Assembly (NCBI GenBank): GCA_963828125.1
Contig: CAWHDP010000002.1
Location: 1,760,001 to 1,824,000, forward strand
DNA length: 64,000 bases
Direction: 5' to 3'
Source of the DNA: an uncultured Chlamydiae bacterium
GTDB taxonomy: Bacteria > Chlamydiota > Chlamydiia > Chlamydiales > SM23-39
The notes under the pieces were generated by a model, which ran no database searches, was not told where the DNA came from, and saw only the letters and a program-made list of their open reading frames with translations. Shown in pieces: positions 57,899 to 62,415 of this stretch. A program made the translations under genes and the position numbers. The number at the start of each line of letters is the position of its first letter. Position 1 is the first letter of the stretch.

Positions 57899-58807
57899 AT
57901 GTTCAGTAAATATTTGGATCCTAAGAATGATTTGGCTTTTAAGAAGATTTTTGGGGAGGGCAAACACAAAAACATCCCCATCAGTTTTCTCAACGCCGTA
58001 CTCCGCTTAGAGGGAAAGGATCAAATTCTCGATCTGGAATTCATCAACACGGTTCAGCCCCCCGCTATTCAGTGTCAAAAAGAGAGTATAGTCGACGTCT
58101 TGGTTAAGGACCAAAAGGGGAATCGCTATATTGTTGAAATGCAAGTATCGAAAACCCCAGGTTTTGAAAAACGGGCTCAGTATTATGCCGCCAAGACTTA
58201 CAGTTCATCTCTGAATGGGGGGGATCCATATAGCCATCTAAAAGAGATTGTCTTTTTGGCAATTACTTCTTATGTCGTATTTCCAAACAAATCAGATTAT
58301 AAATCTGAACATGTAATCCTGGATAAAAAAACATATGAACAGGATCTCAAAGACTTCTCCTTTACATTTGTAGAGTTGCCCAAATTTACTAAAAAAGAAG
58401 AAGAGTTAAAGACAATCGAAGATCAGTGGTATTACTTTTTCAAACACGCAGCAGAGAGCAACCAAATCATTCCTGCCCTCGCATCCACATCTGAGATTTG
58501 CGACGCCTACGACATTGTGGAACGGTTTAGTTGGACTGAGCAAGAACTCAGATCTTACGACAACAATATGATGGCGCTGAGGGATGCTCGATCGCGTCTT
58601 GAAGGAGCTCGCGAAGAGGGACGTGAAGCGGGACGTGAAGAAGGGCGTGCAGAGGGACGCGAAGAGGGACGTGAAGAAGAGCGCAAAAAGATCATTCAAA
58701 ATCTCCTTGCTGACCAGTTTCCTCTCGCGACCATTTCTAAAATTACCGGTTGCAGCGAAAAAGAACTCGTTTCCATAGCTGATCAAATTCCCGAAAGGGG
58801 GCCATAA
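57899..58807 (+). CDS. Rpn family PD-(D/E)XK nuclease / putative transposase, copy 1 (302 aa, 5 RExG-type repeats)
   Basis: LDPKNDLAFKKIFG, DVLVKD...IVEMQ...KRAQYY and FVELPKF; C-terminal REEG repeats. Confidence 0.93.
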   Translation: MFSKYLDPKNDLAFKKIFGEGKHKNIPISFLNAVLRLEGKDQILDLEFINTVQPPAIQCQKESIVDVLVKDQKGNRYIVEMQVSKTPGFEKRAQYYAAKTYSSSLNGGDPYSHLKEIVFLAITSYVVFPNKSDYKSEHVILDKKTYEQDLKDFSFTFVELPKFTKKEEELKTIEDQWYYFFKHAAESNQIIPALASTSEICDAYDIVERFSWTEQELRSYDNNMMALRDARSRLEGAREEGREAGREEGRAEGREEGREEERKKIIQNLLADQFPLATISKITGCSEKELVSIADQIPERGP

Positions 58808-58812
58808 CCGAT

Positions 58813-59697
58813 ATGTTCAGTAAATATTTGGATCCTAAGAATGATTTGGCTTTTAAGAAGATTTTTGGGGAGGGCAAACACAAAAACATCCCCATCAGTT
58901 TTCTCAACGCCGTACTCCGCTTAGAGGGAAAGGATCAAATTCTCGATCTGGAATTCATCAACACGGTTCAGCCCCCCGCCATTCAATGTCAAAAAGAGAG
59001 TATAGTCGACGTCTTGGTTAAGGACCAAAAGGGGAATCGCTATATTGTTGAAATGCAAGTATCGAAAACCCCAGGTTTTGAAAAACGGGCTCAGTATTAT
59101 GCCGCCAAGACTTACAGTTCATCTCTGAATGGGGGGGATCCATATAGCCATCTAAAAGAGATTGTTTTTTTAGCAGTTACTTCGTATGTCGTATTTCCAA
59201 ACAAATCAGGCTATAAATCTGAACATGTAATCCTGGATAAAAAAACATATGAACAGGATCTCAAAGACTTCTCCTTTACATTTGTAGAGTTGCCAAAATT
59301 TACTAAAAAAGAAGAAGAGTTAAAGACAATCGAAGATCAGTGGTATTACTTTTTCAAACACGCAGCAGAGAGCAATCAAATCATTCCCGCCCTCGCATCC
59401 ACATCTGAGATTTGCGACGCCTACGATATTGTTGAACGGTTTAGTTGGACTGAACAAGAACTCAGATCTTACGACAACAATATGATGGCGCTGAGGGATG
59501 CTCGATCGCGTCTTGAAGGAGCTCGCGAAGAGGGACGCGAAGAAGGGCGTGCAGAGGGACGTGAAGAAGAGCGCAAAAAGATCATTCAAAATCTTCTTGC
59601 TGGCCAGTTTCCTCTCGCGACCATTTCTAAAATGACCGGTTGCAGCGAAAAAGAACTCGTTTCCATAGCTGATCAAATTCCCGAAAGGGGGCCATAA
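58813..59697 (+). CDS. Rpn family nuclease, copy 2 (294 aa, 3 repeats)
   Basis: Near-identical to copy 1. Confidence 0.93.
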   Translation: MFSKYLDPKNDLAFKKIFGEGKHKNIPISFLNAVLRLEGKDQILDLEFINTVQPPAIQCQKESIVDVLVKDQKGNRYIVEMQVSKTPGFEKRAQYYAAKTYSSSLNGGDPYSHLKEIVFLAVTSYVVFPNKSGYKSEHVILDKKTYEQDLKDFSFTFVELPKFTKKEEELKTIEDQWYYFFKHAAESNQIIPALASTSEICDAYDIVERFSWTEQELRSYDNNMMALRDARSRLEGAREEGREEGRAEGREEERKKIIQNLLAGQFPLATISKMTGCSEKELVSIADQIPERGP

Positions 59698-59702
59698 CCG
59701 AT

Positions 59703-60575: not shown

Positions 60576-60580
60576 CCGAT

Positions 60581-61513
60581 ATGTTCAGTAAATATTTGGA
60601 TCCTAAGAATGATTTGGCTTTTAAGAAGATTTTTGGGGAGGAAAAACACAAAAATATCCCCATCAGTTTTCTCAACGCCGTACTCCGCTTAGAGGGAAAG
60701 GATCAGATTCTTGATCTGGAATTCATCAACACGGTTCAGCCCCCCGCGATTCAATGCCAAAAAGAGAGTATAGTCGACGTCTTGGTTAAGGACCAAAAGG
60801 GAAATCGCTACATTGTTGAAATGCAAGTATCGAAAACCCCAGGTTTTGAAAAACGGGCTCAGTATTATGCCGCCAAGACTTACAGTTCATCTCTGAATGG
60901 GGGGGATCCATATAGCCATCTAAAAGAGATTGTTTTTTTAGCAGTTACTTCGTATGTCGTATTTCCAAACAAATCAGACTATAAATCTGAACATGTAATC
61001 CTGGATAAAAAAACATATGAACAGGATCTCAAAGACTTCTCCTTTACATTTGTAGAGTTGCCCAAATTTACTAAAAAAGAAGAAGAGTTAAAGACAATCG
61101 AAGATCAGTGGTATTACTTTTTTAAACACGCAGCAGAGAGCAACCAAATCATTCCCGCCCTCGCATCCACATCTGAGATTTGCGACGCCTACGACATTGT
61201 TGAACGGTTTAGTTGGACTGAGCAAGAACTCAGATCCTACGACAACAATATGATGGCGCTGAGGGATGCTCGATCGCGTCTTGAAGGAGCTCGCGAAGAG
61301 GGACGTGAAGCGGGACGTGAAGAAGGGCGTGCAGAGGGACGTGAAGAAGGGCGTGCAGAGGGACGCGAAGAGGGACGTGAAGAAGAGCGCAAAAAGATCA
61401 TTCAAAATCTCATTGCTGACCAGTTTCCTCTCGCGACCATTTCTAAAATTACCGGTTGCAGCGAAAAAGAACTCGTTTCCATAGCTGATCAAATTCCCGA
61501 AAGGGGGCCATAA
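60581..61513 (+). CDS. Rpn family nuclease, copy 4 (310 aa, 7 repeats)
   Basis: Near-identical to copy 1. Confidence 0.93.
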   Translation: MFSKYLDPKNDLAFKKIFGEEKHKNIPISFLNAVLRLEGKDQILDLEFINTVQPPAIQCQKESIVDVLVKDQKGNRYIVEMQVSKTPGFEKRAQYYAAKTYSSSLNGGDPYSHLKEIVFLAVTSYVVFPNKSDYKSEHVILDKKTYEQDLKDFSFTFVELPKFTKKEEELKTIEDQWYYFFKHAAESNQIIPALASTSEICDAYDIVERFSWTEQELRSYDNNMMALRDARSRLEGAREEGREAGREEGRAEGREEGRAEGREEGREEERKKIIQNLIADQFPLATISKITGCSEKELVSIADQIPERGP

Positions 61514-61518
61514 CCGAT

Positions 61519-62415
61519 ATGTTCAGTAAATATTTGGATCCTAAGAATGATTTGGCTTTTAAGAAGATTTTTGGGGAGGAAAAACACAAAAATATCCCCA
61601 TCAGTTTTCTCAACGCCGTACTCCGCTTAGAGGGAAAGGATCAGATTCTTGATCTGGAATTCATCAACACGGTTCAGCCCCCCGCCATTCAATGTCAAAA
61701 AGAGAGTATAGTCGACGTCTTGGTTAAGGACCAAAAGGGGAATCGCTACATTGTTGAAATGCAAGTATCGAAAACCCCAGGTTTTGAAAAACGGGCTCAG
61801 TATTATGCCGCCAAGACTTACAGTTCATCTCTGAATGGGGGGGATCCATATAGCCATCTAAAAGAGATTGTTTTTTTAGCAGTTACTTCGTATGTCGTAT
61901 TTCCAAACAAATCAGACTATAAATCTGAACATGTAATCCTGGATAAAAAAACATATGAACAGGATCTCAAAGACTTCTCCTTTACATTTGTAGAGTTGCC
62001 CAAATTTACTAAAAAAGAAGAAGAGTTAAAGACAATCGAAGATCAGTGGTATTACTTTTTCAAACACGCAGCAGAGAGCAACCAAATCATTCCCGCCCTC
62101 GCATCCACATCTGAGATTTGCGACGCCTACGACATTGTTGAACGGTTTAGCTGGACTGAGCAAGAACTCAGATCCTACGACAACAATATGATGGCGCTGA
62201 GGGATGCTCGATCGCGTCTTGAAGGAGCTCGCGAAGAAGGACGTGAAGAAGGGCGTGCAGAGGGGCGTGAAGAGGGACGTGAAGAAGAGCGCAAAAAGAT
62301 CATTCAAAATCTCATTGCTGACCGATTTCCTCTCGCGATCATTTCTAAAATTACCGGTTGCAGCGAAAAAGAACTCGTTTCCATAGCTGATCAAACTCAA
62401 GGAAAGCGGCGCTAG
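61519..62415 (+). CDS. Rpn family nuclease, copy 5 (298 aa, 4 repeats)
   Basis: Near-identical to copy 1 but with a distinct C-terminus (DQTQGKRR). Confidence 0.93.
   Translation: MFSKYLDPKNDLAFKKIFGEEKHKNIPISFLNAVLRLEGKDQILDLEFINTVQPPAIQCQKESIVDVLVKDQKGNRYIVEMQVSKTPGFEKRAQYYAAKTYSSSLNGGDPYSHLKEIVFLAVTSYVVFPNKSDYKSEHVILDKKTYEQDLKDFSFTFVELPKFTKKEEELKTIEDQWYYFFKHAAESNQIIPALASTSEICDAYDIVERFSWTEQELRSYDNNMMALRDARSRLEGAREEGREEGRAEGREEGREEERKKIIQNLIADRFPLAIISKITGCSEKELVSIADQTQGKRR

Follow-up and report, generated by a model that had tools for sequence, protein, structure and literature searches.

A head-to-tail array of five Rpn-family nuclease genes with differing repeat numbers in an uncultured Chlamydiales genome

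The 64,000-nucleotide stretch analyzed here (the window; GenBank assembly GCA_963828125.1, contig CAWHDP010000002.1) comes from an uncultured Chlamydiales genome and contains five intact genes of the Rpn (recombination-promoting nuclease) family, arranged head to tail on the forward strand at positions 57899 to 62415. The genome assembly consists of 2 contigs totaling 2.37 Mb with no N. All four spacers between the open reading frames (ORFs) are the same 5 bp, the copies are 97.3 to 99.0% identical in DNA outside a tract of 4-amino-acid repeats, and this tract holds a different number of units in each copy (Table 1). An earlier sequence-only reading of the window had described the five ORFs with these lengths, spacers, and repeat counts, all of which were confirmed. 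The comparisons below indicate that a single PF12784 nuclease gene was amplified in tandem in this lineage; the sequence-only reading had also favored tandem amplification over transposition.

Table 1. Features of the array and its immediate flanks (positions within the window)
Feature	Position	Strand	Details and basis
tRNA-Leu(CAG)	57566..57650	+	Left neighbor of the array; ARAGORN
Predicted promoter	57863..57891	+	TTGAAT, 17 bp, TAACAT; ends 7 bp before the copy-1 ATG
Rpn copy 1	57899..58807	+	302 aa; 5 repeats (58610-58669); PF12784 E=5e-50, TIGR01784 E=9e-47
Candidate internal Met224/225 of copy 1	58568/58571	+	Position in the copy-1 ORF
Junction	58788..58812	+	5-bp hairpin over a strong Shine-Dalgarno site, stop codon, 5-bp spacer; identical before copies 2 to 5
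Rpn copy 2	58813..59697	+	294 aa; 3 repeats (59524-59559); ORF and family match
Rpn copy 3	59703..60575	+	290 aa; 2 repeats (60414-60437); ORF and family match; repeat tract bridged by a contig of run X4
Rpn copy 4	60581..61513	+	310 aa; 7 repeats (61292-61375); ORF and family match
Rpn copy 5	61519..62415	+	298 aa; 4 repeats (62230-62277); different last 6 residues; ORF and family match
Remnant of dispersed MITE-like repeat	62413..62479	+	TA-flanked inverted ends; begins within the copy-5 stop codon
cmk-acyltransferase fusion gene	62499..63809	-	Right neighbor, convergent with the array; PF02224 and PF01553

Membership in the Rpn family, likewise claimed by the sequence-only reading, is supported by scores above curated cutoffs. 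The three array copies scanned all matched PF12784 (PDDEXK_2) at 171 bits (cutoff, 27.4), both copies scanned against TIGR01784 scored 160 to 163 bits (cutoff, 52.1), and the Pfam cutoff was exceeded by all 6 rpn copies of the genome (the five of the array and a solo copy). Every array copy has the nuclease motif residues D66, E80, and Q82, which are nearly invariant among homologues (120/120, 120/120, and 119/120, respectively), and Foldseek against the PDB returned weak PD-(D/E)XK matches, none at E≤0.001. The solo sixth copy lies on the same contig (G000:C2:438007-438945; L001:8008-8946), encodes 312 amino acids, and is 85% identical to the array copies; it has the same predicted leaderless promoter and a different repeat wording (EEGL/KKGL alternation).

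The repeats sit in the C-terminal tail. An AlphaFold model, built on a database variant of copy 1 (P0001; changes at residue 122 and over the last 6 residues), had a mean predicted local distance difference test (pLDDT) score of 76 and a predicted template modeling score of 0.65, and placed an alpha/beta core ahead of a helix at residues 214 to 271 that contains the repeats, with two short helices after it. The family profile, built from 59 homologues, matched E. coli RpnA-S (7TH0) over the tail (E=0.003), which identifies the tail as homologous to RpnA-S and, with the modeled helix, gives it an RpnS-like C-terminal helical domain with variable 4-amino-acid repeats in the first helix. We also predicted a tail dimer from two copies of residues 210 to 302, using a score mark that is reached by 20/30 solved pairs and 1/23 single chains. 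The homodimer scored 0.62 (best control, 0.00), with at least 98% contact agreement between runs, a pLDDT of at least 83, and a parallel, in-register interface at residues 230 to 262. The tail is thus predicted to dimerize in register through the repeat helix, with a score that may reflect its likeness to 7TH0. If so, the two ends of the dimer could both align only between tails of equal repeat number, from which we infer a physical basis for self-specific pairing.

The array appears to be expressed from its first copy. Read by eye, the arrangement TTGA(A/G)T, 17 to 18 bp, TAACAT, 6 to 7 bp, ATG is common to copy 1, the solo copy, and two close homologues in other genomes (L022 and L023), with diverging spacers; the predicted promoter scores 8/12, below the scanner threshold, and a scan of positions 57600 to 59000 returned 0 sites. 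This arrangement likely yields a leaderless mRNA for copy 1, and a leaderless start would fit the weak Shine-Dalgarno (SD) site found there (-4.4 kcal/mol). Copies 2 to 5 are without the promoter motif, and each is preceded by the SD-like site noted in the sequence-only reading, which proved strong (-11 kcal/mol, ranking at or above 96% of 828 called starts) but pairs within a 5-bp hairpin stem that immediately precedes the stop codon of the copy upstream. A strong SD site in a hairpin at that position is the usual layout of translational coupling, and copies 2 to 5 are likely coupled in this way. The 25-bp junction sequence matches neither of the outer flanks and may predate homogenization of the copies. 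An internal promoter within conserved Trp/Tyr codons was also considered and found unconvincing: Y220 is encoded by TAT in 72/100 cases (638/1033 for Tyr elsewhere), and the Trp-adjacent codons are mixed.

Sequence differences among the copies are distributed unevenly, and the comparison of nuclease and tail that the sequence-only reading had recommended was informative. Codons 1 to 223 hold 22 synonymous and 3 replacement sites across the copies, compared with 1 synonymous and 7 replacement sites from Met224 on, repeats and last 7 codons excluded (Fisher p=2e-4). With a replacement-to-synonymous rate ratio of ∼0.03 from the site counts, the nuclease part is by this measure under strong purifying selection and kept intact, and the tail is relaxed or diversifying, its 7:1 ratio being indistinguishable from neutral; positive selection on the tail was rejected on that ground. 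With the same exclusions, 7 of 10 variable amino acid sites fall from residue 237 on, as expected from the claim that differences are mostly C-terminal. The contrast recurs in other genomes: summed over 14 of 17 pairs (those of this genome excluded), the nuclease has 408 synonymous and 97 replacement codons, and an ungapped tail window has 49 and 88, respectively. One pair of paralogues (L084/L085; G071:C4) is 99.5% identical in the nuclease and differs at 25/29 tail codons, a pattern suggestive of C-terminal module swapping.

The single-nucleotide polymorphisms of the copies, which had been described as private, are so only in part, since many are shared in a mosaic pattern; of the 55 pairs formed by informative sites, 18 show four-gamete conflicts, an indication of recombination between copies. 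This mosaicism, together with units joined by a 5-bp spacer and the lack of rpn at the corresponding site in relatives (0 of the 10 cmk loci examined, 6 of which reach trxA), supports tandem amplification. We found no inverted repeats, target duplication, or att duplication around the unit of the kind expected for an insertion sequence or integrative element, and blastn of the tRNA-containing upstream query gave no match at the right flank of the array. The solo copy has ∼43 bp of upstream sequence in common with the array and no more. At the other end, the divergent last 6 residues of copy 5 run into a stop codon that overlaps the end of a MITE-like (miniature inverted-repeat transposable element) repeat. 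This family occurs throughout the genome, with TA-flanked inverted ends and modular inner segments (53 ends by a strict pattern; 109 ends in 84 loci by a looser one, 73 of these ends following a TA; four units stand in tandem at C2:1145867-1146143), and an end adjoins each rpn locus (window 62413-62479 and L001:7927-7950). We identified no transposase matching the family. A MITE-driven origin of the array was rejected given the 84 such loci genome-wide, the lack of any in the flanking sequence inspected for the G008 homologue, and the missing transposase.

The same reading had viewed the array as a panel of repeat-length variants, and as a selected set this panel was not upheld. Five draws from the family tract lengths (pool of 97) are all different ∼30% of the time, and among near-identical (≥90%) copies residing together in 18 genomes, 6/83 pairs share a count, against 7.9 expected (P=0.33), in a test whose pairs are not independent and whose null ignores shared ancestry. 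Here, 211/217 rows were kept (two frameshifted or truncated G034 rows and rows without anchors were dropped). Leaving out this genome gave 6/68 equal pairs (6.5 expected), and the deficit seen in an earlier subset (2/60 pairs; 6.3 expected; P=0.035) did not hold after 60 further regions were added. Selection for distinct counts was accordingly rejected for want of support; the family comparison does show repeat number changing much faster than point mutations build up. At G034:C20, G118:C4, and G129:C22, too, near-identical copies stand next to each other on one strand with tracts of different length; the first of these arrays, in a genome of the same order (L039; G034:C20:19056-25799), comprises two intact copies that differ in repeat number, a truncated copy, and several that are broken. 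Elsewhere (G110, L069-L075; G177, L076-L080), near-identical copies are dispersed, with widely different tract lengths and no ATG, GTG, or TTG between a conserved Tyr and the repeats. An rpn homologue is present in 2/13 genus relatives, and the family occurs in at least 50/301 genomes of the phylum, often in multiple copies (up to 9 candidates scored per genome).

Much of the conceptual background to this array has been published. Zhong et al. (2023; PMC10327210) described RpnL/RpnS as a gene-within-gene system in which neutralization by the antitoxin is lost on adding one repeat, with an internal start 8 to 20 residues before the repeats; they found that RpnP2 protects against phage and attributed rpn arrays to tandem duplication, with an example in Parabacteroides. 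Koonin (2023; PMC10400984) proposed that variation in the repeats keeps multiple copies from being inhibited in trans. Tandem rpn arrays, repeat-number specificity, and repeat-based insulation of co-resident copies are already in print, and the sequence-only reading's concept of an array with repeat specificity is not new; the details added here are the leaderless promoter and the translational coupling, both likely. Literature searches combining the Rpn family with Chlamydiae, and environmental chlamydiae with phage, defense, and toxin-antitoxin, found no paper on chlamydial Rpn, and among the papers listed, by title and start of abstract, there was no functional follow-up of the nuclease from 2023 on beyond these two. 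Neither "Chlamyd" nor PF12784 was found in the portion of the Zhong et al. supplement searched; the large Dataset S1, which may fall outside that portion, could list chlamydial arrays.

We hypothesize, with confidence a little better than even, that the array is a single operon of defense nucleases of toxin-antitoxin type, the repeat number of each copy probably limiting its pairing to the tail that matches. One nuclease gene would have been amplified in tandem into five intact copies, a single leaderless transcript would start at copy 1, and ribosomes finishing the preceding copy would open the SD hairpin and allow copies 2 to 5 to be translated. Slippage in 12-bp steps and unequal crossing-over would scramble repeat number faster than point mutation, so that differing counts would need no selection for difference. 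By analogy with E. coli Rpn, a small C-terminal protein starting at Met224/225 would neutralize its own nuclease, and release would restrict phage or invading DNA.

The candidate start has some comparative support. The repeats begin 14 residues after Met224 and 13 after Met225, both distances falling within the published range; Met225 is found in 97/120 close homologues (the column also holds Lys in most distant ones); and 79/131 dereplicated homologues have ATG in the start window, compared with 23% of 1552 background windows, a ∼2.6-fold enrichment of Met. Several observations nonetheless weigh against our hypothesis. The SD energy at Met224/225 is -4.1 to -4.7 kcal/mol (medians: -4.25 for called starts, -3.3 for internal ATGs), homologues with ATG at this position are not stronger in SD (9% versus 31% at -5 or better), and 41/131 homologues are without ATG, GTG, or TTG in the window. 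A start codon is lacking in 7/8 G110 copies and 5/5 G177 copies, whose tracts span 56 to 108 and 60 to 92 residues, and by profile alignment the position matching the RpnA-S start appears to be Arg231. The 7:1 ratio in the tail is compatible with neutrality, ∼77% of sites being replacement sites. The array neighbors scanned with Pfam are housekeeping genes, with no defense genes among them, and PADLOC on 3 proteins gave a weak coiled-coil match and nothing specific. Finally, the host lineage is intracellular, and this analysis identified no phage of it. The missing SD at Met224/225 is not decisive, because SD use is weak across the genome (43% of starts at -5 or better, versus 30% of internal ATGs).

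Several of these points would be accommodated if no separate antitoxin were made, an explanation that we regard as unlikely. The repeats would then dimerize full-length copies in register and act as a molecular ruler for the distance between the nuclease heads and the C-terminal helical module, in the manner of the EcoR124 TAEL repeats, and the array could, on the same tentative footing, be a built-in specificity panel of five coupled, self-pairing nucleases with near-identical heads, five helix lengths, and diverging tails, their output kept low by the leaderless promoter and translational coupling. Repeat variation that persists in clades without a start codon before the repeats, the lack of an SD signal at the candidate start, and a predicted parallel dimer that keeps its register throughout the tract would all fit, as would the EcoR124 parallel and helix-turn-helix resemblance noted by Zhong et al. 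The enrichment of Met and its retention in close homologues speak for an internal product, and such a product was shown for a Clostridioides difficile Rpn expressed in E. coli (PMC10327210); the weakness of SD signals genome-wide also takes force from the missing site. Were this explanation true, the gene-within-gene model would not cover much of PF12784.

Near-neutral or selfish amplification is, in our judgment, unlikely. An addictive nuclease would have expanded by unequal crossing-over and been kept by its toxicity or by gene conversion, with the repeats as slippage noise and no defense benefit. The pair test bears this out insofar as counts coincide as in random draws, and the patchy, often multicopy distribution of the family, the mosaic copies, and the absence of defense neighbors among the genes scanned are all in keeping with it. 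Set against these are five intact copies with a rate ratio of ∼0.03 in the nuclease, in contrast to the broken copies of the G034 array, and the phage protection shown for RpnP2 (PMC10327210).

We consider it very unlikely that the proteins are nuclease effectors delivered into the eukaryotic host cell: Chlamydiae are intracellular, and record titles place relatives in further host-associated lineages, but the nuclease domain stands at the very start of the protein (its Pfam match begins at residue 8), leaving no room for an N-terminal extension, and the RpnS-like tail, found also in free-living bacteria, is retained.

Read evidence, in the form of assembled contigs of public runs, bears on whether the array is real. 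No RNA run carrying the array was listed among the sequencing runs. Contigs of run X3 (study P2) and run X4 (study P1) cross the head-to-tail junction with at least 31 bases to either side, and in run X1, possibly the source sample, the collapsed gene body and the junction contig have depths of 48.3 and 46.3 compared with 11.7 to 14.3 in the flanks (∼3.4 to 4 times), which fits four or five copies, contig depth being a rough guide and not a copy number. Run X3 has exact contigs with 5-, 2-, and 4-repeat tracts at depths of 2.8 to 3.3 (flanks, 2.2 to 4.6), each extending less than 31 bases past the tract at one end or both. Another X3 contig connects a tail resembling that of copy 5 with a head resembling that of copy 1 or 2, and may reflect a graph chimera or a different order of the copies. 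That the assembler concatenated population-level repeat variants of one gene, the outcome named beforehand as overturning the array, is very unlikely: no record spans the array and short ENA contigs hold single chimeric versions (4, 5, or 7 repeats, with the copy-5 ending), but contigs from two studies cross the junction, the X1 depths are raised, the 1.92-Mb contig that encloses the array has no N, and the chimeras hold only the array's own counts, as expected of collapsed short-read assemblies. The order of the copies given here is that of the assembly.

The gap between tRNA-Leu and cmk is a variable site in the genus, holding different genes in different genomes among the relatives' loci compared. 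About 2 kb downstream of cmk in one genus relative (G011; L044:3384-5388) is a gene pair that presumably resembles an AbiEi/AbiEii toxin-antitoxin. Elsewhere in the window are two adjacent low-GC (36 to 41%) ORFs of 601 and 648 amino acids on the reverse strand (8038-11892), with no Pfam match at E≤0.001 and possibly acquired; a 535-amino-acid ankyrin-repeat protein on the reverse strand (16868-18475) with a weak SET-domain match (E=5e-4, below the cutoff) and the look of a protein directed at the host; a protein combining a winged helix at its N terminus with a YcaO domain (37884-40091); and an ABC transporter gene followed by a 1809-amino-acid autotransporter (44434-52636).

Differing repeat numbers are what the Rpn family shows generally, and the array is a real and tidy example of a described, likely anti-phage toxin family. 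Its five natural alleles, with near-identical nucleases and 2, 3, 4, 5, and 7 repeats, offer a ready 5-by-5 matrix on whether repeat number insulates co-resident Rpn copies and on what drives the variation. The many PF12784 relatives that vary their repeats without a canonical internal start bear on how general the intragenic antitoxin is beyond the few proteins studied.

The closest known system is RpnL/RpnS (E. coli RpnA-E and RpnP2; PMC10327210), with which the array shares a TIGR01784 PD-(D/E)XK nuclease, an RpnA-S-like tail, variable 4-amino-acid repeats in a long helix (here predicted to dimerize), a patchy distribution, and the absence of transposon ends between copies. Unlike that system, the array belongs to the PF12784 branch in a chlamydial host, has no SD before its candidate internal start, and comprises five 97 to 99% identical copies in one likely operon whose scanned neighbors are housekeeping genes rather than a defense island; the toxicity and phage protection of E. 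coli Rpn were tested, and the array is known from its sequence. The array of Parabacteroides sp. Marseille (Zhong et al. 2023, Fig. S1B legend) is similarly head to tail and ascribed to tandem duplication, not transposition; its legend is silent on repeat-number differences, and promoter or coupling anatomy is absent from the available portion of that text. The chlamydial arrays at G034:C20, G118:C4, and G129:C22 resemble the present one in their adjacent, same-strand, near-identical copies with different tract lengths but have two or three intact or partly intact copies, with broken genes in G034. A more distant parallel, as drawn in Zhong et al., is the TAEL repeat of EcoR124I/II HsdS, a type I restriction specificity subunit, unlike the Rpn proteins of the array, in which the number of 4-amino-acid repeats may likewise change the length of a helical spacer; the likeness is one of analogy, and no homology is claimed.

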